Shown here: positions 1 through 46,508 of the stretch, one piece after another | Numbering within the stretch: position 1 is the first letter of the stretch | Layout of the letters: each line of letters starts with the position of its first letter | NCBI GenBank assembly: GCA_965235115.1 | Contig: OZ249436.1 | Coordinates: 25,484,001 to 25,548,000, forward strand | Direction: 5' to 3' | Length of the DNA: 64,000 nt | DNA from: Laetmonice hystrix | Lineage: Eukaryota | The notes under the pieces: generated by a model | Told to the model about the DNA's origin: nothing | What the model saw: the letters and a program-made list of their open reading frames with translations, nothing else | The model's database searches: none | Made by a program: the position numbers and the translations under genes

Positions 1-478
1 TTTGGGAACATAGACATTAATGGTTTCGAGACGGTGCAGTGTGGACTCACTGTCAAGAGTAATACCAATTCATGGACATTTACTTATTGTTACCGTTAGT
101 TGTTATTTTCTACCATATCTATTCCCATGACAATGCAGTGTGGGCTCATTGTCAAAAATGGGACATTAATGGTTTCGAGACGGTGCAGTGAGGGCTCACT
201 GTCAAGAGTAATACCAATTCATGGACATTTACTTATTGTTACCGTTAGTTGTAATTTTCTACCATATCTATTCCCATGACAATGCAGTGTGGGCTCATTG
301 TCAAGAATGGGATGGTGACACCCTTTCTGTTCAGAAATAACCTAATTGTCCTAAACCTTTAATTAATGTTGGACACGTGCAGTGTGGGCTCACTGTCCAA
401 CTTATATTTTTAATATTATAATAAACGGGTGTTGCCCAAATAACAACATTATCTGTTTCCGAGTGTTGCCTGCATAAA
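1..478 (+). mobile_element. 3' terminal repeat (block B2) of a split-direct-repeat (Ngaro/DIRS-like) element, same family as 2823-10368, opposite orientation; truncated by the window start
   Basis: Near-exact reverse complement of ~2820-3297 (a couple of mismatches). Ends ...gttgcctgcataaa and joins the satellite at (gctt)aa|taccattatacc. Confidence 0.85.
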
Positions 479-2822
479 TACCATTATACCATCAACTCGC
501 ATTACAGGCCTAATGCGAAGCTCCTAGCCTAAAACGAGTTTCCAATTAATTTAAAGTTAACAAGATGCACTAATAATCGATTCCAAGCCTAATTAGGCCA
601 TTGCTAGTTGGATAACCAAATCTCATACAAAATACACCCTCCCGGCAGATGACCTGAGAATATTCAACTCTTATGTCCGATATATCCCTGTCCGCTTAGT
701 AGCACCCAGCCGGGCCCCCATTTTGACATTGCAACACCAATACAGCAAGTGGCCAGCTAACAGCACAAATAACAGGATTCAGGGCTTCCTACCACGTTAC
801 AAGTCACAATAGATTGCTGCCTGTCGTAAAAATATACCAGACCATTTTAAAAAGTCACAGAACCCCAATCCGGCCCTAGTATGTCACTCCCAGTACCAAT
901 ACACGCTGGAAGCACCATCAACTGAAATTCAGGCCTAGAACCCACCTCTCTCTACCAATATCATGCACCTAGTCCGTATACGAGGTTGTAATTTACTTTA
1001 ATCAACGGGCTGCGCCGCAGCAACCCACTCTGGTCTTTGCAATCTTTTTCAATATGCGTTAACATTTGTGACCAGCTCAACGCGCCTTGTAAAATTTTTC
1101 AAAGTGCGTAAAAGTGTGTGTCCACCCCGACACGCTTTCCAAACCACTATACCCACCGAGCGACATCCACTCAAATACAGGCTTCGACCGATCCTCACTA
1201 TGCCAATAATCCGCAACAAGGCAAATTCAGTCAATGCAAGCTGGAAAATCGAATGTCACACCTAATGCTTCCCCCCCCCCAGCACGTTAACTGAAAATAA
1301 TCAACTAGCTTGAAAACTAGAATATAGCTTTGTTTAGCTAACAATCTACTCTCCCAGCGCCATCAACTCGCATACAGGCGTAAAAGCAAACGCACTGCCC
1401 CATATAATGCTCCCAGCCTAAAACGATGTTGCAATTAATTTAAAATTAACAAGATGCACTAGTCATCCGATCCAAGCCTAATTACGTCATTGCTAGTTTC
1501 ATAACCAAATCTCACAGAAAATACCCCACCCGGGCACATAACCTGAAAATATTCAACGTTTATCTCCAATGTATCCCTGTGCACCTAGTAGCACCCAAGC
1601 GAGCCCAATTTTGACATTCCAACACAAATACCGCAAATACCCGCCTAATGGCACAAAAAACTTTCTACCCTGTTGCAAGTCACATTAGCTTGCTGCTTGT
1701 CGTAAAAAATGGTGCAGACCATTTCTAAAGTCACAGTACCCCACTCCCGGCCTAATATTACGTTTCAGTATCCATATACGCTGCAAGCGGCAGGAACTCG
1801 AATACAGGCCTAAAAGTAACCCCAGTCTAGCAATATCATACTCCCATGCCATATACGAGCTTGTAATTATCTTTAATTAATGGGCTCCGCAGCACCAACC
1901 CACTGCATTAACATTTGTTTACCAGCTTAACACACCTTGTAAAATTTTTTCAAGTGCGTAAAAATGCGTGTCCACCTCCACATACTTTAAAAATCACTAT
2001 ACCCACCCAGCGACATCCACTCTACTACGCGCCTAAAAGGAACTTCACTGTCCCATTTGATTCTCCAGCACGTATAGGATGTTTCAAGTAACATTCATCC
2101 ACGGTCTGGCCCAATAACGTGCAACAAGGCATAGTAAGTCAATGCGAGCTCGCATGTCAAACCTAACCCGCCCCCCAGCACATGAGCTGAAAATATTCAA
2201 ATAGCTTGAAAACTAGAATATAGCTTTGCTTAATACCATTATACCATCAACTCGCATTACAGGCCTAATGCGAAGCTCCCAGCCTAAAACGAGTTTCCAA
2301 TTAATTTAAAGTTAACAAGATGCACTAATAATCGATTCCAAGCCTAATTAGGCCATTGCTAGTTGGGTAACCAAATCTCATACAAAATACACCCTCCCGG
2401 CAGATGACCTGAGAATATTCAACTCTTATGTCCGATATATCCCTGTCCGCTTAGTAGCACCCAGCCGGGCCCCCATTTTGACATTGCAACACCAATACAG
2501 CAAGTGCCCAGCTAACAGCACAAATAACAGGATTCAGGGCTTCCTACCACGTTACAAGTCACAATAGATTGCTGCCTGTCGTAAAAATATACCAGACCAT
2601 TTTAAAAAGTCACAGAATCCCAATCCGGCCCTAATATGTCACTCCCAGTACCAATACACGCTGGAAGCACCATCAACTGAAATTCAGGCCTAGAACCCAC
2701 CTCTCTCTACCAATATCATGCACCTAGTCCGTATACGAGGTTGTAATTTACTTTAATCAACGGGCTGCGCCGCAGCAACCCACTCTGGTCTTTGCAATCT
2801 TTTTCAATATGCGTTAACATTT
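479..2822. repeat. 1.75-kb macrosatellite, ~1.3 units between two element copies
   Basis: 479-1067 recurs about 1755 bp later (~2234-2822); same unit as the rest of the window. Confidence 0.97.
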
Positions 2823-2993
2823 ATGCAGGCAACACTCGGAAACAGATAATGTTGTTATTTGGGCAACACCCGTTTATTATAATATTAAAAATATAAGTTG
2901 GACAGTGAGCCCACACTGCACGTGTCCAACATTAATTAAAGGTGTAGGACAATTAGGTTATTTCTGAACAGAAAGGGTGTCACCATCCCATTC

Positions 2994-3291
2994 TTGACAA
3001 TGAGCCCACACTGCATTGTCATGGGAATAGATATGGTAGAAAATTACAACTAACGGTAACAATAAGTAAATGTCCATGAATTGGTATTACTCTTGACAGT
3101 GAGCCCTCACTGCACCGTCTCGAAACCATTAATGTCCCATTTTTGACAATGAGCCCACACTGCATTGTCATGGGAATAGATATGGTAGAAAATTACAACT
3201 AACGGTAACAATAAGTAAATGTCCATGAATTGGTATTACTCTTGACAGTGAGTCCACACTGCACCGTCTCGAAACCATTAATGTCTATGTT
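2994..3291. repeat. 149-bp tandem duplication inside block B (also in the other B copies), carrying repeated hairpin motifs
   Basis: ttgacaatgagcccacactgcattgtca starts at 2994 and again at 3143. Confidence 0.85.
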
Positions 3292-5579
3292 CCCAAATCT
3301 AAAAATAGGAACATTATCGTTAAAAAATATGTGTTAAAGGGTTAAAAATGTGTTGAACAGTTAAATGTGAGTGGCGACGCAGAGCCCATCAAACAGATGA
3401 CCTAAGGCGGCAGGTGGGGCGGTGAAGGCACTGAAAACCGTTACCCTGCGTGTCTTGAAGAAAGTGGGAAGATTCAAGGACAACGTCACGGTCGTCAACC
3501 GGTTGCGGCATGATGCATGATGGGATTCGGCGTGACATAATTATTCAACACATGACCCAGAAAGTTGTTGCCATGACGGCACTGATTCAGACAGTAGGCC
3601 TCTCGTGTTTTCCTGCATAAAATTCGTTGAACCTTCGATTACAACGTGCCTTTATGCAGGCAACACTCGGAAACAGATAATGTTGTTATTTGGGCAACAC
3701 CCGTTTATTATAATATTAAAAATATAAGTTGGACAGTGAGCCCACACTGCACGTGTCCAACATTAATTAAAGGTGTAGGACAATTAGGTTATTTCTGAAC
3801 AGAAAGGGTGTCACCATCCCATTCTTGACAATGAGCCCACACTGCATTGTCATGGGAATAGATATGGTAGAAAATTACAACTAACGGTAACAATAAGTAA
3901 ATGTCCATGAATTGGTATTACTCTTGACAGTGAGCCCTCACTGCACCGTCTCGAAACCATTAATGTCCCATTTTTGACAATGAGCCCACACTGCATTGTC
4001 ATGGGAATAGATATGGTAGAAAATTACAACTAACGGTAACAATAAGTAAATGTCCATGAATTGGTATTACTCTTGACAGTGAGTCCACACTGCACCGTCT
4101 CGAAACCATTAATGTCTATGTTCCCAAATCTAAAAATAGGAACATTATCGTTAAAAAATATGTGTTAAAGGGTTAAAAATGTGTTGAACAGTTAAATGTG
4201 AGTGGCGACGCAGGCCACTAACCTGCTTGGAACAAGCAGGTGGAGCCACCCACAACACACAGTGCAGGGATGCAGGGAAATGAAACGCCTATTCTGCAAC
4301 CGATGCAAATCATCTGCTTTCCCTTGTTTCCTTGATTCTTTGAAGGTCAAGTTGAGTTAATGATTGTGTCACAAATATTATGGTATGAAACTCAACCATG
4401 GAGTTTCAAACATATTCCCCACACAGGGCAACTGCAAAAAGAATGGAGGTATAGCTCCAATAAAAACATCTTGTCGATCCAACGAAGATGGACACCGGCT
4501 AGGCCTATTATCTAGTCAGATCCGAAAAACCGCTCCAAATCCCATTTTAACTGAAGCGTCCATACGGAGTTTCAAGGAGACACCGCGATTGTTGGTGAAA
4601 AGCATTCTTTGCTAATATTATATGATCATACAGATCACACACGTAGATCTGCTCTTGCACCACTGCATCTGGCCACAGCAAGAATGGTCTGGAAGAGACT
4701 GGGAGTACCCAGTCGAGGCTCAGGCCGGGCCGAACTCCTATCTCCAACCTCCCTGAACAGTCGTAAATGGGAACCGTCTGGACACCAGCCGCGAATCCTT
4801 GCGAAATAGTCGAGGCCGACCCGGTTCCACTTAACCCACAATGAGACGCTCCCTCTTGCATGGGGGCATGGAGATCGGAGAATTCCGTGGGAGCTTGGGC
4901 TTGGACCTCAATCGTGTAGTCGCCATCATGAACAGAAGCCGTACAAGGGAACATGGCCAGGGTAACAACCCGCTCATTGAAGTTGATTGAATTGAAGGGC
5001 TCATTGTAGAGCCAAAGTCAATGACAAAACGCCCAGATTGAATAATTCATGTTGTGTATAACATTGGCCGAATAGGGGAAGTATAATATTATACTGAATA
5101 ATTCATTTAGCATAATGTAAATCGTTACGTAATATACGATTATGAAATTAAACTGATATCTACGAATTTGATGATAGAGATAAGCCTAGATGATATGTCA
5201 GTCAGTGGCGAAAAACCATGGTTTACATGTAATAATAATACATATACATGTATAATAACATAAATGTAATATAATATAAATTGAACGTAAATCAAATGTT
5301 AGGCACACATGTGATACTGATAGGCTGCTAATCCAGGGGAAACCCACGATCTCCCAATGGCCTATACGGCCAACAAAATATTGTTAATATTATAATAATG
5401 TATCTCTGAAGCAGCAAAAAGTAAAATAAATGTAAAAGAGACTGAACATTCGAACTGCTGTCGCGCTGATCCAACAGAACACTCGATGGTCTCTCAATGG
5501 CTGAGCCTAACAGTGAACACAACATTTATGTCGTGAACGCATCACATCAGTCGATGTAATTGCAACGTAAACAAAATGG

Positions 5580-6640
5580 TTAAATGTGAGCCAGATCCTA
5601 GATGGGCTGCAAACTCAGGACAGTCGAATCCCAACGATCTTTCATTGGCATTGGCATATATGCAGTGGCCAATATCAATTAACTATAATGTTGTATCACT
5701 GAAGCAAAAATTATAATAATATAAATATTAAGAGACTGAAAATTTGCGACTGGTATGTCATATGAGGCCAATATCAAGTAAATATAATATTGCATCACTG
5801 AAGCAAAGACAAAGTATATTATATAATCTCAATAAAAAGACTATGTATCGTGTACATGTCACATCAACAGTAATGAAGTAAAGTAATACAGTATGAAGTG
5901 AAATCAATCAGTCGGGTAAATGTGAGCCAGACATGAGAAGGGCTGCTAATTTAGCATAAGCCCAACGATCCCTCAATGTCACATCAGGCCAATATCAAGT
6001 AAATATATTGCATCACTGAAGCAGAGACAAAGTATAATATCTCAATAAAAGAGTCTATGTATCGTGAATATATCACATCAACTGAGGTAATATAATATGA
6101 ATTGAAACAAATCAATTGGGTAAATGTGAGCCAGACATAAGAAGGGGCCGCTAATCCAGCATAAGCCCAACGATCTCTTAATGTCATATCAGGGCAATAG
6201 CAATAATATATTGTATCGCCGAAGCAAACACAAAGTATTGAAACAAAATCAATTGGGTAAATGTGAGCCAGACATGAGAACTCAGAGAAGGGCTGCTAAT
6301 CCAGGATAAGCCCAACGATCTCTTAAGGTCATATCAGGACAAAAGCAATAATATATTGTATCGCCGAAGCAAACACAAAGTATTGAAACAAAAATCAATT
6401 GGCTAAAATGTGAGCCAGACATGAGAAAGGCTGCTAATCTAGCATAAGCCCAACGATCTCTCAATGTCATATCAGGCCAATAGAATAATATATTGTATCA
6501 TCAAAGCAAAAACAAAGTATTGAAACAAAATCAATCGGGTAAACTAAATGTGAGCCAGACATGAGAAGGGGGTGATAATCCAGCATAAGCCCAACGATCT
6601 CTCAATGTCATATCAGGCCGATAGAATAATATATTGTATC
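5580..6640. repeat. Degenerate tandem repeats (~135-200 bp, ~6 copies) inside family-1 element
   Basis: Recurring aaatgtgagccagacatgagaag...agcccaacgatctctcaatgtcatatcaggcc near 5582, 5918, 6122, 6259, 6407 and 6547. Confidence 0.85.
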
Positions 6641-6679
6641 ACCGAAGCGAAGTAAAATGTAGCAATAAAAAAAAAAAAT

Positions 6680-9200
6680 TAATAAAGACTGAAAGAAAAC
6701 TGGAACTGCTGATCAAAGAGAAAACCCAATAGTTTCCTGATGACAGAGCCCAACACAAAAATATATACGAGATATAAATCCCATTAATATCAATCATAAT
6801 CAAATGTGACCAATAATGAAGAGAACCAAACGGTCTCCCAATAAGGTCTAAATATAGCAATAACAAGGTGTATAATGTAGCCATAATAAAAATATAAAGA
6901 CTGAATAGAAAGTTGGAACTACTGATCAAAGAGAAAACATTATAGTCTCTTGATGACAGAGCCCAACACAAAATACGGGATATAAATCCCATTAATATCA
7001 ATCATAATAAAATGTGACCAATAATGAAGAGAACCAAACGGTCTCCCAATAAGGTCTAAATATAGCAATAATAAGGTGTATAATGTAGCGATAATAAAAA
7101 TATAAAGACTGAAAAGAAAACTGGAACTACTGATCAAAGAGAAAACATTATAGTCTCTCTATGACAGAGCCCAACACAAAAATATATATGCGGGATATAA
7201 ATCCCATTAATATCAATCATAATAAAATGTGACCAATAATGAAGAGAACCAAACGGTCTCCCAATAAGGTCTAAATATAGCAATAATAAGGTGTATAATG
7301 TAGCGATAATAAAAATATAAAGACTGAAAAGAAAACTGGAACTACTGATCAAAGAGAAAACATTATAGTCTCTCTATGACAGAGTCCAACACAAAAATAT
7401 ATATGCGGGATATAAATCCCATTAATATCAATCAATCATAATAAAATGTGACCAATAATGAAGAGAACCAAACGGTCTCCCAATAAGGTCTAAATATAGC
7501 AATAATAAGGTGTATAATATAGCAATAATAAAAATATAAAGACTGAAAAGAAAATTGGAACTACTGATCAAAGAGAAAATATGATAGTCTCTCGATGACA
7601 GAGCCCAACACAAAAATATATATACGGGATATAAATCCCATTAATATCAATCAATCATAATAAAATGTGACCAATAATGAAGAGAACCAAACGGTCTCCC
7701 AAAAAGGTCTATAGCAATAATAAGGTGTATAATGTAGCAATAACAAACATATAAAGACTGAAAAGAAAAATGGAACTGCTGATCAAAGAGAAAACAGTAT
7801 AGTCTCTCGATGACAGAGCCCAACGCAAAAATATATATACGGGATATAAATCCCATTAATATCAATCATAATCAAATGTGACCAATAATGAAGAGAACCA
7901 AACGGTCTCCCAATAAGGTCTATAGCAATAATAAGGTGTATAATGTAGCAATAATAAACATACAAAGACTGAAAGGAAAATTGGAACTGCTGATCAAAGA
8001 GAAAACATGATAGTCTCTCGATGACAGAGCCCAAAACAAAAATACGGGATATAAATCCCATTAATATCAATCATAATAAAATGTGACCAATAATGAAGAG
8101 AACCAAACGGTCTCCCAATAAGGTCTATAGCAATAATAAGGTGTATAATGTAGCAATAACAAACATATAAAGACTGGAAAGAAAATTGGAACTGCTGATC
8201 AAAGAGAAAACATGATAGTCTCTCGATGACAGAGCCCAACACAAAAATACGGGATATAAATCCCATTAATATCAATCATAATCAAATGTGACCAATAATG
8301 AAGAGAACCAAACGGTCTCCCAATAAGGTCTATAGCAATAATAAGGTGTATAATGTAGCAATAACAAACATATAAAGACTGGAAAGAAAATTGGAACTAC
8401 TGATCAAAGAGAAAACAGTATAGTCTCTCGATGACAGAGCCCAACGCAAAAATATATATACGGGATATAAATCCCATTAATATCAATCATAATAAAATGT
8501 GACCAATAATGAAGAGAACCAAACGGTCTCCCAATAAGGTCTATAGCAATAATGTGTATAATGTAGCGATAATAAACATAAAGACTGAAAAGAAAATTGG
8601 AACTTCTGATCAAAGAGAAAACAGTATAGTCTCTCGATGACAAAGCCCAACGCAAAAATATATATACGGGATATAAATCCCATTAATATCAATCATAATA
8701 AAATGTGACCAATAATGAAGAGAACCAAACGGTCTCCCAATAAGGTCTATAGCAATAATAAGGTGTATAATGTAGCAATAATAAACATATAAAGACTGAA
8801 AAGAAAATTGGAACTACTGATCAAAGAGAAAACATGATAGTCTCTCGATGACAGAGCCCAACGCAAAAATATACGGGATATAAATCCCATTAATATATCA
8901 AAAATAATAAAATGTGACCAATAATGAAGAGAACCAAACGGTCTCCCAATAAGGTCTATAGCAATAATAAGGTGTATACTGTAGCAATAATAAACATATA
9001 AAGACTGAAAAGAAAATTGGAACTACTGATCAAGGAGAAAACATGATAGTCTCTCGATGACAGAGCCCAACACAAAAATAAGTAATCTAAATCCCATTAA
9101 TATCAATCGTAATAAAATGTGACCAATAATAAAGAGAACCAAATGGTCTCCCAATAAGGTCTAAATATAGCAATCATAAGGTGTATAATGTATCAATAAA
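6680..9200. repeat. ~205-220 bp A-rich tandem repeat, 12 copies, inside family-1 element
   Basis: Marker gaaccaaa(c/t)ggtctccc recurs 12 times between ~6825 and ~9150. The repeated minus-strand ORFs here are by-products of the repeat. Confidence 0.95.
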
Positions 9201-10368
9201 AAATATATATATACAACACACGTAGCCAGATTAATTAAACAGGCCCCGTAATGTACAGTATATACGGGATACATATCAATCATCATTCACAAATATGCTG
9301 TAAATTGTAATGTATCAATAATGTATAAAGAAACCGTGGCCAATAGAATGAATTTAATGTAGGCCTAACAATATATCAGGTTAAGGTAGCATTTATACAA
9401 TAATTTACATGTGTAGGAAAACATTGGCAATAGGAAATAACCACTGAATGATGGATGAAAACAAAACGGTCACTCTTGTAGATCTACTCCCGCAAGACAA
9501 AATTCAATGGCATTTTAATAGACACGACACGTAGCCACCCGTCCTCAGAGCCAACGTCAAACACTAAGTCAATAAGTGACTAACGAGGTTACTAGATTCT
9601 AAACTAGTAGATATCATATAGTCATAACTAACGTCGTTAGATTAAACGCTAATGTAGGCTCAGGCTAAGTATCAAATTCATGACATAAGACAAGTCGATC
9701 CAGTTAGACCGGCTAGCCTGACTAGCCTAGTGACAGTGTCTATCATTATCAATCAACTAGATCTAGTCTATAACAAAACTACAGCCACATTCACTAGATC
9801 TAGATCTACCCCGATAGTAAAGAACTAACGGTGACGTTAAATTCGGATTCACTTTAGAACTAAACTCCTTGGGTATCTGTGACAGGACGACGAAGATGAA
9901 TGCTGTCACTAAGACAAGTAAGAGTAAGAATCAAGACGTACCCAGACGCCATTTTGCTTAGCCTAGCCCTAGGCCTAACTCCTAGGAGATATAAAGATGG
10001 CTAAACCTAGGCCAACAGACTATGCCTAGAAAATGAAAGCAAGTACAAAAGACGGGTGACCATTTTATAAAGACGTGACTAGAAACTCAACCTCGGATGA
10101 ACTAAAATTAAGACGATTGAGAGTGATAAAATGCGACCGTTGCCACTGAAAACCGTTACCCTGCGTGTCTTGAAGAAAGTGGGAAGATTCAAGGACAACG
10201 TCACGGTCGTCAACCGGTTGCGGCATGATGCATGATGGGATTCGGCGTGACATAATTATTCAACACATGACCCAGAAAGTTGTTGCCATGACGGCACTGA
10301 TTCAGACAGTAGGCCTCTCGTGTTTTCCTGCATAAAATTCGTTGAACCTTCGATTACAACGTGCCTTT

Positions 10369-29926: not shown

Positions 29927-30885
29927 TAGATAACGTCACTAAATTGTACGCAAAAACATTAAGTTGCCGGTACGTTTTGTGCAGTTTCGCGGCCTGTATC
30001 GCCAATAATAAACATATACCATCGATTTATATCTCGTTCTCTTCCTGAGATAACAACCAATACAGTCATGTAACTTTTCAGTAAATTCCGTTAGAAGTAA
30101 ACAAGACAGGAGCGTGTGACCGGCTCGGAAAATGTTCCGAAATGTTCAATTTTTGCCGACTTTATGTCAAATAATTGTCAATATCAGCTTCAATAAAGAT
30201 GCTATCTTATCGTAAACAAAGTATGGTGTGTAAAACTAAATTTTGCTTCAGATGGTACCACTCTTACGATTATCGGTGGAATTTTTTTCAAATAAGGATC
30301 AACGGAAGACGAGCGCGAAATTTGAAGAATATGCCATATTTTTCCGTAATTCTTTGGATCTGGTGACGTGACAATGCGCGTGGTCAATTCCAAAATATCA
30401 CCGCTTCTTATCAATGTTAGGCAGTATCGAAACAAGGTTAAAATTAATTAAAACTATACCTTTACAAAGCTGACATCGACAGTTTACTGTCATCGTGTTT
30501 TCAACGCACGAGCACACGCTGAAGCCGGTTTGAACGGAAGTGAAGTTACTCTTACCAAACATTGAGAACCAGGATGTTGACCTGTGTATTTTTCTTCCTG
30601 GGTCACAGCTGTCAATCTATAATAATGCGCTAAATGTAGCACGGTTCAGTCAATGTTTATTCTGTATTTACACATTTATTTATCTTCTTACATTGTGATC
30701 CGCTAGTAGACATCATAATAAACAATCTGTGTTAACAGTGAGAGTGTAAAGCCCCAACTTATAGAGATAGCAGTGAATGTGTGCGAGTATCATCAGTATG
30801 AGTTTCGTCTGCTCGTGCGGCGATCGCCGTTGTACCGACACAATCTTCCCGTTCTCACCGGCATGCCGTGTCAGCTCCCGGCAGT

Positions 30886-33800
30886 ATGGAGAGCCAGTGC
30901 CGTGTATGCTTTGCGTACGGCTGTACACAAAGCAATCATCACCGTTGCAGCAAATGTGGGGTCAAAGGCCACACCCAGAGGACTTGTTTGAACACCATTG
31001 TTCCTGAGCCAAGTCACTTGCCGACTCCTGCTCCCCCCATACCTTTGAGGCGGGATTCAACGAAAGCCCTGACTCAGGTAAGCCAAAGGCAAAGGCTAAT
31101 TTAAGTAGGGGGTTAATGTGAATGATGAATCACCCGCTATTTTTTATGTGAGCATGTGAAATGAAGGGGTGCCTATTAAATCTAAATAATAAATATATAA
31201 TTGATACTAATTATCAAACATGGAATGAAATAAATCACAGTAAATTACAGAAAATATTCTAAGACTATTTATATTAAAAGTTCTTGTCTAGACTAACGTT
31301 ATGGCTATTCTGAACTTCACTGGTTGGTACCCTGAGGCGGTGGGGATGGGGGAGGGGATGGCGGCTAAGTACTGTGACTTGTAAGTGTAAGGCCTGTGCG
31401 AAATATTTGGCTTTACCTATATTCATTTTGGGTGGAGGCTTTCCATTAAAAATGTAGTTCTAATAAAACTTCACACATGTAAAGACCTGCATATTATGTG
31501 GCATGAAAGTGAATTAGTATTATAAAACACCATAGATACACGCACACTCACCCAAATTTATTTACATTTGAACACAGACACTTGACCAGATTTCCTCTCA
31601 AATTTGCAAATATCTTTTATCTCGTTTTAAAAATGATAGGTTAAAATTTTAATTCTAAGCCCCAGATACGCACACCCAAAAAGGAAAGGTTGCCATCCCA
31701 ATTTTTATTACACATATTTAATAGCAACATTTTAAGAAGTTTGGAAATCTGTCTCTTGAAAATGTTATTAAGTTCTGGTGCTTGAGGTCTGGGGTTGTTG
31801 TATTCCCATGCTGCTAAACATTAATAACTAGGCATTAAAAAAAATTGAAGGAATTTAGTGTTTGGTGTTATTCTCATACAAATGGTGGCCTGCGTATTTA
31901 TCTACTATTATCTTCATCACTTAGTAGTTTTTTTAATTGGATTACAGGAAGAAGTGGACATGGCTTCTCGTGTTATCCTTGGATGCCAGAACGAATACCA
32001 AGATCTAAGAGAGACCCCTTTGGACAGGTATCAATCATCCTCTTGAAATATTATTCTCTCAAATTATCATGCATTATGTGAACTTTTACGTAAATTTTCC
32101 AATACTCATTCTTACTTTAATACAGAGCTAGTCGTCTAACAGGTCTGGGAAAATCCACCCTGCACAAAATGAAAGAGTGTTTAGACAATGGGGAACATCC
32201 CCAAGCAGTAACTGACAGGCGTGGAAAGTGGCAGCGGCAAGAACCAAGGATGCTCCTCGCCAAAGTATATGGTTAATTAAATAGTAACCACTCACTATAT
32301 AGGACTTGCCTTGTGAATAAAAGAAATACTATGCACAGAGTTTACAAACAGGACGCAAATTGTTGTACTGCACTCTACTGGAACATATTATAAGTTCAAA
32401 TTGATTTTTCTATGAAAATCTGTTCAGCATTTAGCCCATACAGTATCCAGGTGTTCCTTAAGTAGAGGTGTTCCCTATCGGAGGTTTTACTGTATTTTTT
32501 CAAGTATTTACAGTTAAAGCATTAGGAATGAAAATCTCTTTTTCCCCCTCTCAATCTCTTAAATGATTATTCAGTCTCAATTTGCCTGGATTCGCAATGT
32601 TTCAATGCATAAGTAGAAACTGAAGACATTATAATTCTTTGATCTACATGTGTACTATGGGATTTTTTGTAAAGGTCAACAAGTGCATCAGCCTGATGCA
32701 CAAGAATGGGATTATGTCATCCATTCCCAAACTTGCCACAAATCTGGATTTCTACGAGGGAATCAGAGTAAGTGTTGAATATCTTATATAATCAATGTAG
32801 TGCACGACAATTTGCAGTAACCTATAGAATTTGGCAGAAGTAGCAGCTAAATGTCCAAACAGACCATGCATTGAGAGACAATTTGAAAAATTCTCATGGA
32901 CACTTTAAAAGATATATAGCAAATATTTTATATACAAATAAAATTACTTTTTTTTGTGACATCTCATACCTTCAATGCACTGTCACAACATACAAATAAC
33001 AACATTTGGTTTACATGTACATGTATATAGAATTATAAGAAAGGTATAATAATTAGAGGAAACTCGTCTCTGATATGGGATCCTGTATCAGACTCGGCGG
33101 CAAGAGTGAAGATCCACATCGGCACTCGTGCTTCCTGTGTATAGTTCATTATTTCATTTGTTTTTTAGCTCTCACACGCCACCCTTCGCCGTATCCTGAC
33201 AAAGATTGGATACAGGTACACCACCCCTGGCTCCTCACAAGTGCAGTTGGCGAAGGAAAACAAAGACATGAAAGACTATAGGCTGTCATACTTGGAGGCA
33301 ATAACCAAGGCCAGGGAAACTCGAGAGGTGGTTTATCTAGATGAATCTTACGTAAACCAACGGCACCAGTCCAACCGCTGTTGGATAAAGAGTGATGTTA
33401 AGGTAGGATGTTTGCTATTTATGTGACTTCTTAAGGAACCCATTAAAACACTTCCTGGAAATTCACCAGAAGAATTTCAGCCAATAGTCCATCTACATAA
33501 CCTCCAAAAGTGGTAATTTTTCATAGGTATACATCCCAGCTGGTAAAGGCCGCAGATATATATTATATGCTGCCGGATCTAGGAACGGATGGGTCGGGGA
33601 CCCAGTCATCTTCCCACATCGTGACAGAGGGGACTATCACGATGCTATGAATGCCAACCACTTCGAGGTAGGTTTTGTGATTTTCTCTGGAGAAATCACA
33701 ATACCTGCAGACTAAAACACTTTTCTTTTGTACCACAATTGTCATGAAAGCAGACAACTGGGTTGGGGTGAAAATCGGCCACTTATTCACTGATGTTCTA

Positions 33801-36678
33801 TTCGTCATAAATCGGTTAAAGCAGAACTTATGAGAAAAATCAGTTTCTGTATAAAAATGGTTGCATGGATGGAAACTACACTTCACAGTTCTTTCACTAT
33901 TACATGTGATAGGAGCTGTTCACCAAGACCTGTGAGCAGGCGGAAGAACTTCTGGGCCCTTGTGCCATAATTTTGGACAACGCCGCCTACCACAAACGCT
34001 TAACATCAGAAACTGACCGGGTCACCTACTGGCAAAGGCTACCAGCAAAGGAGGTGCTTTCTGCTTGGCAGGAAAAAAAGGTACATCTAGTGAGGTTAAT
34101 CTGATTAATATGATGGAACTATTCACAAATCTTATCTTTAGAACATACAACGCTGATAATTGCAGCACAGAGTGGGCATGCAGAAATAAATCACTTGTTA
34201 CACAAAGGCTTGATTTCTAGTTTTATGTTTAAAGGTACCAGGGCAGGAAAAGTATGAGGGTCCTCCTGTCAAATCAAAAAAGCAAGTAATGGACTGGCTT
34301 AAGACACATCGTCCCCAAGGTAAATATACTTAGTGCTGCATTACACATGCATCTAAAAATTAATACAAGTGTCATAACTAGAGTCCTTGATGTGCTTTGC
34401 TGTGCTGTGTAGGTATTCATTTTATTCCTTTAATCGTAGTCCTGGAGTAGTATTACAAACTCTTCCAAACTCTCATTCTAAATTCTGATTCTACAACCTC
34501 CTCAACTTTCCTCCACATAATAATGAGTGTCCCCACACTTTTACAAGTCTTTTACAGTCATTGGCAGGACCATGACACTTGACAGGCCTTCTCACGTTGA
34601 CTGTCTTCATTTTATTTAATGAAGTGAGGATTTCATACAATCTGCTATTATAATATCAAGTGTACATATCATACTCAACCACGATGGCACATAATTTATT
34701 ATGAGATATTCTCAGATATATGACTTTGGATAAAAGAATGTCCAATCTCGATGGAACATTGATGATTTTTTTAATCTCCAATGTAAACGTTCAATATCAG
34801 GACTAAGGTGAGAGCCACATACATATACTTTCATTATATATCTGGCTTGTAGAAAACCTTTCTAGGATATAATACTGTAAATCAGGAGATTTTCACAACA
34901 TTTGGTTTTTGGACCTTTCGCAGCATCTAATTTTTGCAAATTTCAAACTTTTCTCGAAAGAGGCACCTTTCTTTCCTGGTTCATCACTAGCACTTTCCAA
35001 CAGAGACAGGTGCCCGTTTGTTAAGTCATAATGTTTGGCAATAATTTACTCTGTGTGGGACAGAACTGTGGCCAGCAACTACTGCGGTGCCACAAAGTAT
35101 GCATGCACCTTAATGTTACAATGGTTCTGACATCACAGAACCTCCTGGGCAATCTGTAAAAAAAGACAAGTGTGCCAAGTTTAGCTGACTGGTGATTAAA
35201 GTTTGCCTAAGGTAGAGGGAGATTATATCACACCTTGAGATCACTTTACTTCTCCGACTATCACCCATGTAGAGACCATTGCAAACTTCATGATGTGCAT
35301 GGAACTTCTTCCTGTGCCTAAGTTTTAGGGAATTCTTTTGTTTCTCACCAAATACGAAATTACACGTGAGAATTACACAGTTTACAGTATGTATGTATGT
35401 ACTACGTATATGTTTAAAGTTCTATTATTTACACAGGTGTGTGCCAGATAAAGGCCATAGCCATGAAACATGGACATAGCATCATATATCTCCCACCTTA
35501 CCACCCTGAACTCAATGCAATCGAGACGGCATGGGCAGTGGTGAAAAACCATGTTGCAAGGCAAAACCATGCCAACGTAACGTTTGCAGACCTCCACTCC
35601 ACAATTTTGGAAGGATTTAAAAAGGTATCACTGCAGACCTGGGTGCAACTGGACGCAAAAGTTCTCAAGGAAGAGCAGGTACAGGGTTGGGGTCAAATAC
35701 GTAATTGTATAATTTGTATTTGTATTTAAATACGCCATTTTTCACTGTATTTGTATTTATTTGTATTTGAAAATTTTAAAAATGACCGTATTTGTATTTA
35801 TTTGTATTTGGTTCTGATATTTGAAATATTTGATCAAATACAGTCAAATACAGGCGTGTCCCCCCCAACAAATATCTGTAATATACAGCTGCTCACTTGA
35901 CACAGTCATGCCATTCACTGGTACAGTGTATTGTCCATATATTAGTACAAATTCTTTATATATTTACACTGAAATATTTCACTTCTGATTATGAATGTTT
36001 AATCACGGTGATATACCACATTCAATATGATTCAAAACTTCAAGTAAATATTAAGTAATATTTGATTGCCGGTGGCCAGAATATTTGTATTTATTTGTAT
36101 TTGAATCCCAAATATTTGTATTTGATTCAAATTTCAAATACAATATTTGTATTTTTTGAAAAAGACGGTATTTGTATTTATTTGTATTTGAAAAGCTCTA
36201 TTTGACCCCAACCTTGAGCAGTTACAACACCAGCAGCTGAAGGAGGATAAGGCCAAAGAGGAAGCCTTTCGAGACCTCCATCCCGACCTTATCTTCAATA
36301 CGGGTTCTGATAGCGGTGAGTATTAATGGTATTAACAAGAAATACACTAGGATATTTTACACTAACATCTTTCCAGACAAAACTTCCAGATTGTAGCCTC
36401 CAAATGTGTAAGACTGCCCATGGTTTATCAATGATGTCAAATAATTTTTTGTATTGCATCACATAAGTTGACTAAATTTCACATGATCCTTTTTTTAAGA
36501 TGATGACAGTGATGATGACCTTCTGGAGGAGCTGGCAGACGGCATAGATGGTCATGGTGGTGTGGATGGTGAGGCGGAGGGTGAGATGCCGGTGTGCCCA
36601 CATGGTGGACTGCTGCCACAGGAGGAGGACGCAGTCTCTGCCCTGCTGGCATTGGGTATAAATAACAGTAGAGTCTAG
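30886..36678 (+). CDS. Spliced DDE transposase, 11 exons, 548 aa, DD91E, with N-terminal CCHC knuckle, HTH region and acidic tail
   Basis: Exons 30886-31077, 31948-32027, 32126-32264, 32675-32767, 33169-33402, 33527-33667, 33913-34080, 34235-34319, 35437-35678, 36222-36315, 36500-36678. All introns are GT-AG and phases are consistent; total 1647 nt with no internal stop. Motifs: CSKCGVKGHTQRTC; RASRLTGLGKSTLHKM (HTH-like); LSHATLRRILTKIGYRY; VVYLDESY (D at 33340); PAGKGRRYILYAAGS; GDYHDAMNANHFE; IILDNAAYH (D at 33976); YLPPYHPELNAIETAW (E at 35523). The start codon and first exons are less certain than the catalytic exons. Confidence 0.85.
35682..36216. mobile_element. hAT-type MITE (535 bp) forming intron 9 of the transposase
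   Basis: TIRs cagggttggggtcaaata / tatttgaccccaaccttg (17/18). 8-bp TSD agcaggta (35674-81) / agcagtta (36217-24). Repeated subterminal gtatttgtattt motifs. Confidence 0.85.
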
Positions 36679-36702
36679 TAGCAATAGGTACGGGATTGAG
36701 TC

Positions 36703-36970
36703 TTACTCTTGAGCCGGTACCGTATGCAGTCTTTTCCAGTGAGGATCTGACGAGATCTTGTACGATTCATGTAGAAACTTGTATGTCTCGGTTAAGTCTG
36801 TTTTGCACCTTCTACTGGCTAACGTACTGAATTCGACTGGTTCGGGGCAGAGTCTATAGAACTGTCTTTGACTTTGTACCTTTTCCAGAGCGTTGATATC
36901 TTTTGCTAGGTGAGGGTTCCATACAGTAGATCCATATTCTAAATACTCCATACTCCAGGTGAGGTCTCAC
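36703..36970 (-). pseudogene. Decayed fragment of a CR1/L2-group non-LTR retrotransposon ORF2 C-terminus
   Basis: VRPHLEYG / LEYGSTVWNPHLAKDINALEKVQ...TLASRRCKTDLTETYKFLH resembles the post-RT motif VRPHLEY..W.P....DI..LEKVQ....L..RR...DL.ETYK.L; frameshifted. Confidence 0.7.
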
Positions 36971-37612
36971 TTGTGAGTTGTGTTGTGTATGATGATGAGT
37001 GTGAATACACAATTTGTTTTGTTGACGTGCAGTAAAAGGGCGGTGTCTTAAATAAACATAATGGAAACATTGTCTCTGGGTTGTCTCTGTTAGTCTGTAT
37101 ATCATTTTTGGTGACGATGTCAAATGGGCCATCCAGCACTGACAGTCACAGCAGTCAGTGTCAGTGACAGCAGTGCCAGTTGCCCATCGCACGAGTTGGT
37201 CACTGCAGTTCAGCATTTTCCCCAAAGCAATCATCTATCTGTGTTTATGGGACAATCTTAGGATAATCTATACATCTTAAGACACGATACCGTGAACAAT
37301 CATCGCTCTTTTCGGTTTAAATCCGTAGTTACCAAAGTGCTTCCGTGCATTCCACAGGCACAGTCAGTGGAGGGTTGCGCGGGAGTGAGCGATAATACAG
37401 GAATTTCCGGGGGGCGCTGACCTCGCGGTTGCATCCTCCCGATTAAAATTAATAAAAAAGACAACTTTTTATATATGTATTCACTATTTATCTCAATAGC
37501 GTATTGTTACAGATTTAGAAGTGCTTATCACTTCAGTTCTGTAATTTGCATAAGAGATTCCTTGAGTCTAAGTGGACCGACGTTGCTGTTTACAATTTGG
37601 TGGCGCCATCTA

Positions 37613-40600: not shown

Positions 40601-41515
40601 TAGCTTGAAAACTAGAATATAGCTTTGTTTAGCTAACAATCTACTCTCCCAGCGCCATCAACTCGCATACAGGCGTAAAAGCAAACGCACTGCCCCATAT
40701 AATGCTCCCAGCCTAAAACGATGTTGCAATTAATTTAAAATTAACAAGATGCACTAGTCATCCGATCCAAGCCTAATTACGTCATTGCTAGTTTCATAAC
40801 CAAATCTCACAGAAAATACCCCACCCGGGCACATAACCTGAAAATATTCAACTTTTATCTCCAATGTATCCCTGTGCACCTAGTAGCACCCAAGCGAGCC
40901 CAATTTTGACATTCCAACACAAATGCCGCAAATACCCGCCTAATGGCACAAAAAACTTTCTACCCCGTTGCAAGTCACATTAGCTTGCTGCTTGTCGTAA
41001 AAAATGGTGCAGACCATTTCTAAAGTCACAGTACCCCACTCCCGGCCTAATATTACGTTTGAGTATCCATATACGCTGCAAGCGGCAGGAACTCGAATAC
41101 AGGCCTAAAAGTAACCCCAGTCTAGCAATATCATACTCCCATGCCATATACGAGCTTGTAATTATCTTTAATTAATGGGCTCCGCAGCACCAACCCACTG
41201 CATTAACATTTGTTTACCAGCTTAACGCACCTTGTAAAATTTTTTCAAGTGCGTAAAAATGTGTGTCCACCTCCACATACTTTAAAAATCACTATACCCA
41301 CCCAGCGACATCCACTCTAATACACGCCTAAAAGGAACTTCACTGTCCCATTTGATTCTCCAGCCCGTATAGGATGTTTCAAGTAACATTCATCCACGGT
41401 CTGGCCCAATAACGTGCAACAAGGCATAGTAAGTCAATGCGAGCTCGCATGTCAAACCTAACCCGCCCCCCAGCACATGAGCTGAAAATATTCAAATAGC
41501 TTGAAAACTAGAATA
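37613..41515. repeat. 1.75-kb macrosatellite
   Basis: Landmarks at 38608 and 40361. Confidence 0.97.
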
Positions 41516-41729
41516 AGGACTCGACGCCACACGTCGGGTACCTTTATGTAGGCAAAACGAAGACTTTAATTGGTACTATATGCTTATACAATACCAAAAG
41601 TATGTTGTAGTATAGCGTATGAGGCTTCTGTCGATTCTTCCGGTCTCCATATTGGTTCTCGGACAGGATCTCACGTTATATCAGAAGGAAGGAAACGGAA
41701 GAATGGAACCGGGAACCCTGGGTGAGAGG

Positions 41730-41736
41730 TATAAAT
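41730..41736 (+). promoter_or_regulatory. Candidate TATA box in block A of family-2 element (copy at 45823-45829)
   Basis: gg-TATAAAT-acgg lies about 25-35 bp upstream of a pyrimidine-rich ctctctcctcaga stretch, an LTR-like promoter layout; positional inference only. Confidence 0.35.
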
Positions 41737-43706
41737 ACGGAAAACCGTCGACGCAGTACCCTCTCTCCTCAGACTACACGAGCGTTCTCTACGTTTCAAA
41801 GGCTCGCCGCGATCAGACGACCTTTGTTCCTCACACTACGGGTGAGTTCGTTCTACTGTTGGGTATTCCGTCAAGCGTAGAGTAGCTTATTGCGTGTATT
41901 TCGGTTTATGACTTTCTGCAACACCTCTGGTGTATGTCTAAACAGATTCAGTAACTTTCTTGTGGATCCGAAATAGGCCAAGAGGGCGCACAGTTCACTG
42001 TATACGGGACCAACCCGTCCTTTGTTATTCGGTCGGTAGGACTCACGTAGTTGAGACGAAAGGTCATGTGTGGGTTGGAGTGTTGTTTATCGCCACATTT
42101 TGCGTTCGATCGACAACGTTTGCGGGCCAATGTTCTGTAGTTGTACCTTTCTTTGTCCTCTGCATTGAGCCACAGGGATTTCAGTCTGTATTACCACAGG
42201 GCAGTTGTGGTTCAGATACGGTCACCGGAGTTTTCGACAGTATTGGACAGGACGGTATATAAAATCGGTAGGTTTCCTGGATTAGTTTAGACGTTATGAG
42301 GATAATAGTGACATTGATAGGGTTAACCATTAATTGTACGCCAGTCTTTGTCCTGTGTATTTAGTCATTAGGATTTTCAGTTTGTATTAGCACGGGACAG
42401 TTATGGTCCATCTGCGGTTTGCACCGGAGGGTTTCGACTGAATTGAACGATGTATAAGTTAGTGGTTTCCCAGGATGGTTTAGACTTTATGTGATTGTAG
42501 TAACATTGTTATACGTTTAACGATGTGTGTAAATTCGTACCAGTCTTTGTCCTCCGTTCGGAGGCACTAGGATTTCAGTCGGCATTACCACGCTCTGGGA
42601 TTTCTTTTCGACTGAACTGGACGATGTATGAATTAGTGGTTCAGGGAATTAGTGTATCAATTGGGGGCGGTGTACCCCAGTTCCGTCTTTACACCGTTGG
42701 TGGTTGTGCATGTGCAGTTTAGATGTTGTGTTCTGGGGTCGCCCCTCATTGGTGGGTTTTACTTTATGTCATGTTATGTTATGTTACGTTGTGTAATGTT
42801 ATGTTATGCGTGGGTTCCGTCTCTCCTGGGGCAACCGTAACCTTTGTCGGGAGTAGAGGTAGTGTTCCCAAAGCATGTTGTACTTGGATTTTCGGCTGGG
42901 GTCCGGTGTCCCGGGGTTCCGTCGTCCCCGCCGTATGTTGTCAGCTAGGGCACTTCGAGGAAGTGAGGTTGTGTTCCCCGGGCGGCCTCGCGGGGTCCAT
43001 TATTAGTGGTCGTGTTTCGCCACCCTAGGTTTCATATAGGAGTGTGCTTAGTAAAACTCGTCTCTTGTCCAGTACTTCAGTGGATAGGCTATTTTACGGA
43101 TATGTGTTTTGTTTAGTTCGTCCACATCTTCGGACTTCGGTGTGAACCCCCTTTTCCTTCGATATTACCCAGTAATCTTGTTTAATTTTACCTGACCAAT
43201 CATGTTTAGTGGACCAGCATAATATCTGGGTAATAGCAAGATGTCCGCTTTAGTTATTTTAGGCGAGTTACGATCTCCACTCAGCTGGCCGCTTCCATTA
43301 GGTCACGGGTATTAATGTTATAATGTAGACTATAATCTTTATTATACTGTTGTCGTTACTCAAATGGATTGTATTGAGTGAGATTGTGTTCCTTTGGGTT
43401 CCGTCTCTCCTTAAGTTGTTGAAGTTAGTGATGCTGTGTTCCCATGTGGGTTCCGTCACTCCTCAAATTATGCTGGAATCTTGTTCCTAAGAGTTCTGTT
43501 GATCCTCAAATGGTGTACCCAAGCAGTGGGGTTGTTTCTGTGCGTTTTGTGGCTCACATTTGTTAAAAAGTGGATTCCTATTCCAATGGACCCCGTCACT
43601 CCATTTTATTAAGGTTCTGTCGCTTGTGTCCCCTAGTTATTTAGAAGTGAGGTTATGTTCAAGTGGTTCCATCACTTAATTTTATAATTTTATATTATGA
43701 TAAATA

Positions 43707-43738
<32 letters not shown>
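43707..43738. repeat. (ATT)n microsatellite in an AT-rich low-complexity tract (~43680-43910)
   Basis: About 10 consecutive att units. Confidence 0.9.
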
Positions 43739-46508
43739 GTTGTCTTATTATTTTAGTGGTTTATTATTTTTAGTAGTCTTATTTTATTATTATTTTAATT
43801 ATCAATTTTATAGTATTGTTATAAAATATTAATTTTTAATTATTATCCCATTTATTACGATTATGATTCATTTTATTACTGTTTTATTTATAATTATTAT
43901 TATAATAACTGTACCTCAAGTTTCCGTCACTCATTTTATTACTATTAATGGGAGTATGTTCCTGAGGATCCGTCTAGGGATGCGAGGTTGTTGGATCACT
44001 CCGCTTTCTAATACTTTGTGTGGGGGGTGCGGTGTCTTGAGAGACCGTCACTCATATTAGCCTGGTTATCAGGAGTTAGATTGTGTTTTAATGGGGTCTG
44101 TCACTCCAGTTTATTACTATTATTGGCTGGGTGTTTCCAAGGATCCGTTACTGATTATGTCCTGACTGAGAGCTGGATTGTGTTCATATAGGCCTACTCC
44201 GTGTCAGTTGGGTGGTATTCCTGCGGTACCATCCCTCATATTTTCCTGGTTAATTAGGAGTTGCGTTGTGTTCTAATGGAGACCGTCACTCCAATTTATT
44301 ACCTTTGTGATGGATACCGTGTCTGTCCATGTACCTTTCTAAAGTTTATCACCTATAGTCTTATTGTTCAAAATTACTGCTTGGAATATTTATTGCTCTT
44401 CCAGTGTTCGCTTCGAAGCGTGGTGCCTTCTACCAGAGTTTTTCTTAGGAGGTTATCCGGTGGGAAATATGTTGTATAGTATGTCAGCGACGACATACAA
44501 TTTGAATTTCCAGTCGTTCCGCCAGTGTGAGTTACCCTTTAAGTTACGTTACGGGTAGTGCAGGAGTGTCGGGCTCTGTAGCATTATCTAGTTTTGGTAA
44601 GGTAAGGTGACTGGACGAGGAGGAAGAAGAAGTAACATCGGTTGGACAGGAGTGTACTCTCGTCTGGCCTCAACCACATACCTCCTTGGATGTTGACCTG
44701 GAAGCTTGGCGTTTATTGAACAGTACCGTGGTTGGAGTTGTTATTAGTAGTAGTATTATTTTCTAATTTGGCCCCAAGTGAAGTGGAATGGAGGTGGGGC
44801 CACATTGTTTCCCGGGTTTTCGGTTATCATAATTTTCATAATCTCAACATAAGGATTAATAATGTTTTACGTTGGATGTTGTCCTTTGGGTTCGACTAGC
44901 TGGATGTGATACTCAGCCTGTCATGGGAATTTAAGTCGTTCATCAGCAATTTGACAAGATTCAAAGCTTTATTGTATTCAAGTTGCAGGTACGGAGGCGA
45001 TGCCAATTTCGGACAGGGAATGATTGGATCCATGTTAATTGTTGACAGTGGGTTATCGGAACGCGGTGGGTCTGGAGATGATTGGTTCCGGATCTTTCAA
45101 CTCCCATAACCGGACGTTAGCGCTCAATTGAGGCTTCTGGTGAGGTATCGGTTGGATGCGTTCGGACTGTAAGCTTGCCTTCTTTGGTGGCTCCAGCTGC
45201 ATCTTCGATCCAGCTTAGTGGCCTTGTTGTCTCCACCTAATAAGGCAGGACTATAAGTAATAGGCCTACCCATGGAATTTTGGCCAATGTATCTCCATAT
45301 ATCTATAATGTATTATCAATTGTCATTATCTATTATCAGTTGTCATTATATATTATTACTATGTTATTTATACAGTTATATATAATAGTATGTTATTTAT
45401 ACTTGTTATATATTATATTATAGTATATTAATATATCATTTATATGTGTTATATATATTTATCATTTACCATCTTATATGATGTAATGTTTTGTATGTGG
45501 GATTGTATGTAGAGTCTCCCCAGTTGGGGATGATCGACGGGTTACGCAATAAAAATGTAACCTACTATACTTTTCACATACAGCCTCTGAGTTTTGACTA
45601 CATAAATAAGGACTCGACGCCACACGTCGGGTACCTTTATGTAGGCAAAACGAAGACTTTAATTGGTACTATATGCTTATACAATACCAAAAGTATGTTG
45701 TAGTATAGCGTATGAGGCTTCTGTCGATTCTTCCGGTCTCCATATTGGTTCTCGGACAGGATCTCACGTTATATCAGAAGGAAGGAAACGGAAGAATGGA
45801 ACCGGGAACCCTGGGTGAGAGGTATAAATACGGAAAACCGTCGACGCAGTACCCTCTCTCCTCAGACTACACGAGCGTTCTCTACGTTTCAAAGGCTCGC
45901 CGCGATCAGACGTCCCACCTCCGCCCCGACTCCTCCATACCTCCCTGAGGACACTGGGGATATTTCGTCGTAGCGTCTTTGACCACGTTCATGGGGTCAT
46001 AATTATGACCAGGGGTTGGTTAAGGGTGGTACCGGGGTCAGCGTGGTCTGCCCGGGCTTTTTGCGGGGTTATACAGGGATGTGGGTCGTGGGAGGGAACT
46101 CGTGGTCTAGGACTGTGTGGGCCTTGTTGTCTCCACCTAATAAGGCAGGACTATAAGTAATAGGCCTACCCATGGAATTTTGGCCAATGTATCTCCATAT
46201 ATCTATAATGTATTATCAATTGTCATTATCTATTATCAGTTGTCATTATATATTATTACTATGTTATTTATACAGTTATATATAATAGTATGTTATTTAT
46301 ACTTGTTATATATTATATTATAGTATATTAATATATCATTTATATGTGTTATATATATTTATCATTTACCATCTTATATGATGTAATGTTTTGTATGTGG
46401 GATTGTATGTAGAGTCTCCCCGGTTGGGGATGATCGACGGGTTACGCAATAAAAATGTAACCTACTATACTTTTCACATACAGCCTCTGAGTTTTGACTA
46501 CATAAATA

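Follow-up and report, generated by a model that had tools for sequence, protein, structure and literature searches.

The window analysed here, a 64-kb stretch of the Laetmonice hystrix genome, is a 1.75-kb satellite array broken by five insertions. Two of these are complete elements without genes, and each carries a fold-back at the junction between its internal repeats. What is this fold-back, and could it be the site at which a recombinase supplied by other elements acts? Both complete elements have the layout A1...B1 A2 spacer B2 (Table 1). With either one excised in silico, the satellite was regenerated exactly, with 21 matching sites for each element, and target-site duplications were absent at both of the empty satellite sites rebuilt in this way. 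A tblastn search found no match to a remnant of reverse transcriptase (RT) or tyrosine recombinase (YR) in either family. Most junction copies among the matches listed were 98-100% identical, in family 1 as in family 2 genome-wide, and by this sequence identity both families appear to be young.

The satellite itself is dimeric, with a unit of about 1755 bp (e.g. 13253-15004) built of 866- and 889-bp halves that are about 65% alike; its units are about 98% identical and show a strong C-over-G skew. It is a repeated target of mobile elements and possibly centromeric. One of the other insertions (25550-26817, 1.27 kb) has terminal inverted repeats and a TTAA duplication, and occupies a satellite position identical to that of the family-1 end at 478; from its RR ends we take it to be Kolobok-like. 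Another, of 7.7 kb (29927-37612), contains pieces of a DDE transposase, presumably of the IS630/Tc1 group, with a YLPPYHPELNAIE-type motif at 35418-35729.

Table 1. Coordinates of the elements, junctions and associated motifs in the window.
Feature	Position	Strand	Basis or remark
Family-2 element, gene-less, split direct repeats	41513..46506	+	self-BLAST
Family-2 repeats	A1 41513-41819, B1 45220-45606, A2 45606-45912, B2 46120-46506	+	self-BLAST
Family-2 left arm (B1 repeat, 3' end)	45591..45606	+	
Family-2 spacer, 29 nt (start of repeat A2)	45607..45635	+	
Family-2 right arm (within A2)	45636..45651	+	
Family-2 inner stem	45612-45619 / 45625-45632	+	5-nt apical loop
AATAAA, candidate polyadenylation signal of B	45548..45553	+	59 nt before crossover, distance equal in family 1
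Second motif common to both families, predicted three-stem junction across 5' boundary of B1	45186..45237	+	
Family-1 element, gene-less, internal minisatellites	2820..10366	-	self-BLAST
Family-1 repeats	A1 10366-10144, B1 4216-3651, A2 3650-3429, B2 3386-2820	-	self-BLAST
Family-1 B1-A2 junction	3605..3666	-	left arm 3666-3651, spacer 3650-3622, right arm 3621-3605
Second motif, family-1 counterpart	about 4250-4200	-	
Second family-1 copy, 3' end (B repeat)	1..478	+	left arm 463-478

At the family-2 junction, the initial annotation had described arms complementary at 15 of 16 positions, a 29-nt spacer and an inner stem, and all three were confirmed. The spacer opens with a short non-Watson-Crick loop before the inner stem, and the last A of the left arm (45606) is the single base in common with the target. 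At the family-1 junction, the 29-nt spacer held but the 16-bp arms did not: the arms are 16 and 17 nt long, pair at 12/16 positions when ungapped and require a 1-nt bulge. The family-1 inner stem also carries one bulged base. The left arms are identical between the families at 13/16 positions, with the compensatory G-C to A-T swap as reported. The further statement that the families share no other similarity proved wrong, since the start of B1 includes 39 nt that are 82% identical and the partner recombinases of the two families are 44-45% identical.

Single-stranded DNA folding of the element sense strands gave z-scores of -8.3 for family 2 and -4.9 for family 1, and none of 200 shuffles was as good. 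The pattern CTRCATAAA-N20..40-TTTATGYAG occurred at 83 sites in the 627-Mb genome, against 3 for the reversed control. A 29-nt spacer was present in 48 of the 50 sites listed out of these 83, so the spacing is fixed within families, as had been anticipated. The looser pattern CATAAA-N20..40-TTTATG was uninformative (2622 genome sites against 4748 in the control). A chance origin of the fold-back was rejected. The AATAAA upstream of the left arm is, by its sequence, likely the polyadenylation signal of B. The second shared motif (Table 1) was also found in four loci (L161, L164, L167 and L168) directly after the YR stop, with its short joiners conserved, and the identity between B1 and B2 starts within its last stem. 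From its predicted structure, it is a candidate signal for setting the B boundary, through an RT stop, priming or strand transfer. An Rfam search placed this motif in no family, the two weak matches obtained being far short of the gathering score.

Coding partners with the same junction were found for family 2 (L075 and L164) and for family 1 (L168 and L167). They carry RT/RNase H and YR, which bears out the expectation that the motif is present in recombinase-coding elements. Their ORFs encode a GDSL/SGNH hydrolase and a gag-like protein, RT/RNase H and YR, the last three in that order, with the gag-like ORF assigned by position alone and without a Pfam match. No methyltransferase (Dam) domain was matched in the partner RT ORFs; Dam was detected in 2/2 DIRS1-like controls. 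Lipase_GDSL_2 matches were obtained in L075, L241, L242 and L243. A hydrolase ORF upstream of gag was seen in these four loci (in L075 at 3708-4352) and in L039, L049 and L057; in L242, it is separated from gag by a minisatellite of about 210 bp that also occurs in window family 1. In a quick tree, which held no named Ngaro reference sequences, the two partner groups formed one seven-row clade (support 97) and the split-repeat lineages were separate from ITR/ICR elements.

By their layout and partner features, the window elements appear to be ordinary non-autonomous Ngaro-type retrotransposons, and we assume that such derivatives are TOC1-like. The layout is assigned to Ngaro because of the split direct repeats, the gag-RT/RNase H-YR order and the lack of a methyltransferase, features given in the available text of PMC9210276 and PMC4157794. 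A PAT-like retrotransposon was ruled out, the methyltransferase domain not being found, and a DIRS1-like identity was ruled out by direct split repeats in place of ITR and ICR. No relative was found in the viral contigs searched. According to the available parts of PMC9210276, PMC8547959 and PMC4157794, published Ngaro elements share with those described here the layout A1-[gag, RT/RNase H, YR]-B1 A2 B2, the SGNH/GDSL hydrolase, the lack of a methyltransferase and of target duplication, and the occurrence of solo A-B pieces. They differ in that the hydrolase ORF lies after YR in Xenopus Ngaro and upstream of gag here, and in that the target overlap is a strict trinucleotide in published Ngaro and one strict base here.

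We then mapped crossovers without regard to folding, taking the position at which the match between B1 and B2 ceases, in YR-bearing loci of the same genome. In the set L161-L240, 22/80 loci had no downstream repeat, and near-duplicates as well as tandem, short or edge-truncated repeats were dropped. The resulting sample consists of 35 junctions, one per family: 33 from YR loci (four of them from L031-L070) and those of the two window families. They represent four YR lineages and one unplaced family, and the families are related, so that the counts below are not independent. Seven extended loci added no further usable junction.

In a strand-neutral search, the end of the outer Watson-Crick stem coincided with the mapped crossover in 27/35 families (shifted controls 10/245) and lay within 1 nt of it in 32/35 (controls 27/245). 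With DNA parameters, the last bases of B were paired 19-50 nt into A at a probability above 0.5 in 30/35 (shifted controls 47/943); with RNA parameters, a fold was obtained in 34/35. After the outer stem comes a short mismatched loop and then the inner stem, the unpaired 5' and 3' loop lengths commonly totalling about 7-9 nt. Arm spacing was 22-37 nt in the 29 junctions where it was measurable, which rules out a fixed 29-nt rule: the 29-nt spacing belongs to the clade of the window families, and the architecture is the constant. A Watson-Crick-only ungapped arm score, later superseded by partition-function and gapped searches, reached p<=0.05 in just 16/35 families, though the combined p was 2e-16. 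One locus (L234) folds differently, and the fold was absent at a doubtful repeat in L163.

The predicted covariation of the stems was examined in 18 junctions chosen by their CATAAA core and was borne out. In this alignment, 88% of cells were paired, 9/16 pairs had double changes, and all three distal inner-stem pairs covaried. Slid registers reached 36-50%, and 0/500 shuffles were as high, a figure that is no probability, the rows being related and chosen by motif. CATAAA and TTTATG were invariant in both arms of these rows, which had been picked by that motif. Metagenome contigs supplied 80 further loci, of which 6 allowed an independent junction call; five of these six Ngaro junctions fold alike, and that of L085 shows no fold. 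Three more metagenome junctions, L081, L118 and L132, came from the motif search and entered only the alignment and the mismatch counts.

Similar structures were seen elsewhere. A fold-back with 16-bp arms and a 28-nt spacer at L038:4027-4086 (L020:27-86) sits between a NADAR ORF and a CryptonA-type YR (DUF3504). L042 and L066 (G000:C5, about 36.67-36.71 Mb) belong here as well: in L042 a YR element combines a B repeat with the junction fold, no RT being found within 10 kb, and a similar ORF pair forms a 6.2-kb tandem array.

Isolated mismatches in the stems were strongly asymmetric. On the sense strand we counted 40 G·T and 6 A·C in the strand-neutral search (controls 149:129), in the outer stem 19:2 and in the inner stem 21:4. 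By lineage the ratios were 8:1, 6:0, 3:2 and 23:2, with 0:1 in the unplaced family; the metagenome set gave 6:3 for isolated mismatches and 5:6 over all mismatches of six junctions. The sense strand also had the lower DNA folding energy in 27/35 families (controls 374/943). Because isolated G·T exceeds A·C by 40 to 6, one strand, the sense strand in Ngaro, appears to be the folding one, a bias that folded DNA and folded RNA would produce alike. That the bias is weak in the 3:2 lineage and among the metagenome junctions counts against a folded-strand reading.

Eight ITR/ICR elements of the same genome showed an outer stem, loop and inner stem as in the Ngaro junction. The fold was read on the ICR sequence as given, equivalent to the circle junction's antisense strand, and this orientation was picked after both strands had been viewed; framed on the sense strand, these junctions gave no consistent spanning stem. 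The stem end met the crossover in 5/8 and lay within 1 nt of it in 7/8 (controls 3/72 and 9/72). Fold scores were 32-45, the controls having their 95th percentile at 27.5, the mismatches were G·T 5 and A·C 0 (controls 64:37), and the folding strand was the more stable one in 8/8. In the terms of the available text of PMC3266345, the divergent ITR (8-36 bp), already known, forms the outer stem, and the right extension (rE, 24-50 nt in rE-only elements), known as well, forms the spacer, and the layout of ITR plus rE at the circle junction equals the arms plus spacer of Ngaro. In six DIRS1-like table rows of the same source, start and end differ at the middle base alone. In the parts of PMC7192593 at hand, a hairpin near the 3' end of DIRS-1 is proposed as RT primer and the junction is called self-complementary. 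The ITR, right extension and hairpin have been published separately in these sources, with the YR substrate assumed to be double-stranded. The Ngaro unit is reversed relative to the DIRS1-like one and has its hairpin at the 5' end, so it would be unable to act as a 3' self-primer, and this orientation argues against RT priming as a role common to both classes.

In Ngaro and DIRS1-like elements alike, the polarity in which the internal junction copy folds is that of the RNA, as a function in RNA would also predict. The hairpin might accordingly act in RNA, only at the internal B1-A2 junction, with YR using ordinary duplex DNA beside the crossover. It could let transcripts continue to B2 by hiding the GU-rich element that follows the polyadenylation signal of B1, or it could guide template switching by reverse transcriptase. 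The G·T bias on the RNA-sense strand and the RNA-parameter folds in 34/35 agree with such a role, as do the second predicted structure at the other boundary of B, the DIRS1-like fold in RNA polarity at the ICR, and a polyadenylation hexamer 30-90 nt upstream of the junction in 27/35 families (control 12/210). However, no hexamer is present within 120 nt in one lineage of five families and in three metagenome junctions, and most of these keep the fold; the ICR of DIRS1-like elements repeats the ends in inverted form, so that masking of a polyadenylation signal there seems improbable; and both the exact stem end at the crossover and the fixed loop-plus-inner-stem geometry are left unexplained. 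We consider an exclusive role in RNA unlikely; an RNA role may be a second function alongside that of a recombination site.

A stem that ends at the junction is also what a nick-sealing splint would require. The fold could keep both termini of a linear single-stranded cDNA together for circle ligation, as the Ngaro counterpart of the DIRS-1 ICR and not as an integration substrate, and DIRS-1 cDNA is indeed described as mostly linear, single-stranded and ICR-dependent (available text of PMC7192593). Against this, first-strand cDNA is antisense, which in Ngaro is the worse-folding strand (the sense strand being lower in energy in 27/35), and DIRS1-like elements own an ICR splint yet still carry the fold. 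We regard the splint as very improbable.

What the elements share with their targets was determined from the ends of genomic copies by counting pattern matches manually; since each pattern closes with W, some sites are missed. At family-1 right ends (among the matches listed, 100 of 147), CATAAA was kept in 62/63 non-junction sites, followed by T 24, A 22, G 14 and C 2. At family-2 right ends it was kept in 71/73, followed by T 43, A 19, G 8 and C 1. Left ends kept the last A in 45/45 copies of family 1, with the two preceding bases being A in 38 (middle A) and 36. In family 2 (among the matches listed, 100 of 176, with one truncated copy dropped and a tandem trio counted once), the last A was kept in 33/33 and the preceding bases were A in 25 (middle A) and 32. 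There was a mild preference for a matching next base (T 61% against 39%, Fisher p 0.015). Element and target therefore share one strict base, and the target is mostly A-N-A. The crossover at AA/T given by the initial annotation stands for the three window copies and fails genome-wide, where the base after CATAAA varies; this free next base rules out a strict AA/T or trinucleotide target.

Both the one-base overlap and the position of the stem end, one pair further on, would follow from a cut at CATAA/A on the folding strand. Judged by the flank data alone, cleavage one base later or on the opposite strand is an equally good fit, and the folding strand was chosen for the cut because of the wobble bias.

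The two arms might instead be inverted YR sites in duplex DNA, with the inner hairpin alone extruding as a small cruciform and bringing the arm distance to a near-normal 7-8 nt. This would suit the loop lengths, which commonly sum to about 7-9 nt, the invariant CATAAA and TTTATG in both arms (in rows chosen by that motif), and the Cre-like YR. Duplex binding, however, does not predict that mismatches of the outer stem be strand-biased too (G·T 19, A·C 2). Second cleavage, at the right arm, would moreover give ends without the hairpin or with an extra one, and neither product was found: 77/77 right arms keep the hairpin, and 29/29 B-end-plus-hairpin copies run on into A. We find duplex arms quite unlikely. 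A loxP-type duplex core has a 6-8 bp spacer between inverted arms and full spacer homology; a site of that type was ruled out by the 22-37 nt spacer and the one shared base.

Among 32 family-1 junction copies, 29 had an upstream A at 5.9-13.9 kb and 3 were uninformative, and none of the 29 informative copies was a permuted insertion (A-spacer-B-A-internal-B). About half would be expected to be permuted from a two-junction duplex circle, so the two identical junctions of this supposed free circle are not used equally. This absence fits none of the proposed mechanisms cleanly. Solo A-spacer-B copies of family 1 are common. On G000:C29, family-1 A repeats start at 5876801, 5881123 and 5885445, a spacing of 4.3 kb, each matching the last 17 nt of B; this series is possibly insertion into the element's own junction, like cassette arrays.

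The initial annotation had proposed a cis site for a YR acting in trans, possibly recognised as a folded strand, and the crossover-matched stem end, the wobble bias and the one-base overlap support it. A model of the partner YR (pLDDT 93) was nearest to Cre (Z 23.4, rmsd 2.8, 277 aligned), with Z 17.8, rmsd 3.0 and 260 aligned against the integron integrase 2a3v. In a weak profile alignment (E 0.19), at the presumed place of the I2 helix insertion of integron integrases, YR 249-313 aligned to XerD 201-265 without net insertion. Being nearer to Cre than to the integron integrase counts against an attC-like reading; CTX-phi uses ordinary XerC/D, so a Cre-like YR is no obstacle to a folded strand.

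As described in the available text of PMC3518468 and PMC3053210, integron attC resembles the junction in its two duplexes parted by an unpaired spacer, its variable terminal loop, its single folding strand (in silico here), and its crossover one base from the outer-box end. In attC, recombination takes place between G and TT of GTTRRRY, with GNT as the secondary sites, to which the A-N-A targets here are similar (PMC3518468, same limits). The attC boxes RYYYAAC and GTTRRRY are absent here, the core being CATAAA and TTTATG, and membership in attC was rejected for this reason. As to attC's extrahelical bases, family-1 inner stems have one bulged base (T, G or C) and those of family 2 none. Also unlike the integron, the YR is Cre-like, there is no attI platform and the site is carried by a retroelement. 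CTX-phi attP(+) matches the mechanism proposed here in its folded strand, just one pair of strand exchanges, no homology beside the second site, resolution by replication and the sufficiency of standard YRs (available text of PMC3442271). It differs in relying on host XerC/D and a fixed dif site, as against an element-encoded YR and near-random A-N-A targets. On present evidence, then, the junction fold would work like attC or attP(+), yet it is no attC.

We therefore propose, at somewhat better than an even chance, that the fold is a YR recombination site of the attC/CTX type, read as one folded strand in a single strand exchange. The B-A junction would be the site for a YR that coding Ngaro partners provide in trans. 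On the sense strand, the outer stem, formed by the last bases of B and a stretch 22-37 nt into A, would be the first YR site, the short mismatched loop the overlap region and the inner stem the second YR site. We infer that the folded molecule is DNA and that YR most likely cuts it one base before the outer-stem end (CATAA/A). The cut strand would be joined to a target in which one matching base is required and A-N is preferred before it, and host replication or repair would complete the insertion, as for integron attC and CTX attP(+). In Ngaro, cruciform extrusion or strand displacement may make the sense strand single-stranded. In DIRS1-like elements, the folded strand would be the first-strand cDNA, which the available text of PMC7192593 reports as single-stranded and antisense. 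That the folding strand of Ngaro is RNA-sense, and the single-stranded DIRS-1 cDNA antisense in that source, speaks against folded DNA. The wider proposition that all YR retrotransposons, Ngaro and DIRS1-like, share one homologous attC-like folded site at the circle junction, in either orientation, and integrate by single strand exchange with one-base homology and a Cre-like enzyme, is tentative, and we place it a little below an even chance.

In the full-text literature searched, a junction fold-back was described for no Ngaro element, nor was an attC-like reading offered for DIRS elements. A word search for the Ngaro fold-back was negative in the available text of PMC7192593, PMC9210276, PMC8547959, PMC6681497, PMC3783388, PMC4157794, PMC13465315 and PMC3266345. 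The junction fold is thus a conserved cis element undescribed in the literature searched. The standing model is a double-stranded circle recombining at a trinucleotide, and the specificity of DIRS recombinases was stated in 2020 as never tested (PMC7192593, in the part available). The present finding names a 60-nt substrate, its strand, a likely cut and mutations to try, and so makes this an oligonucleotide-scale question. If the proposal is true, the DIRS1 ITR/rE ends and the Ngaro split repeats would be one site in two orientations, and the fold would provide a structural tag for detecting gene-less members. Folded-strand recombination, as in bacterial integrons and the CTX phage, would then also drive a widespread order of eukaryotic retrotransposons, as a eukaryotic, retroelement-borne counterpart of integron recombination.
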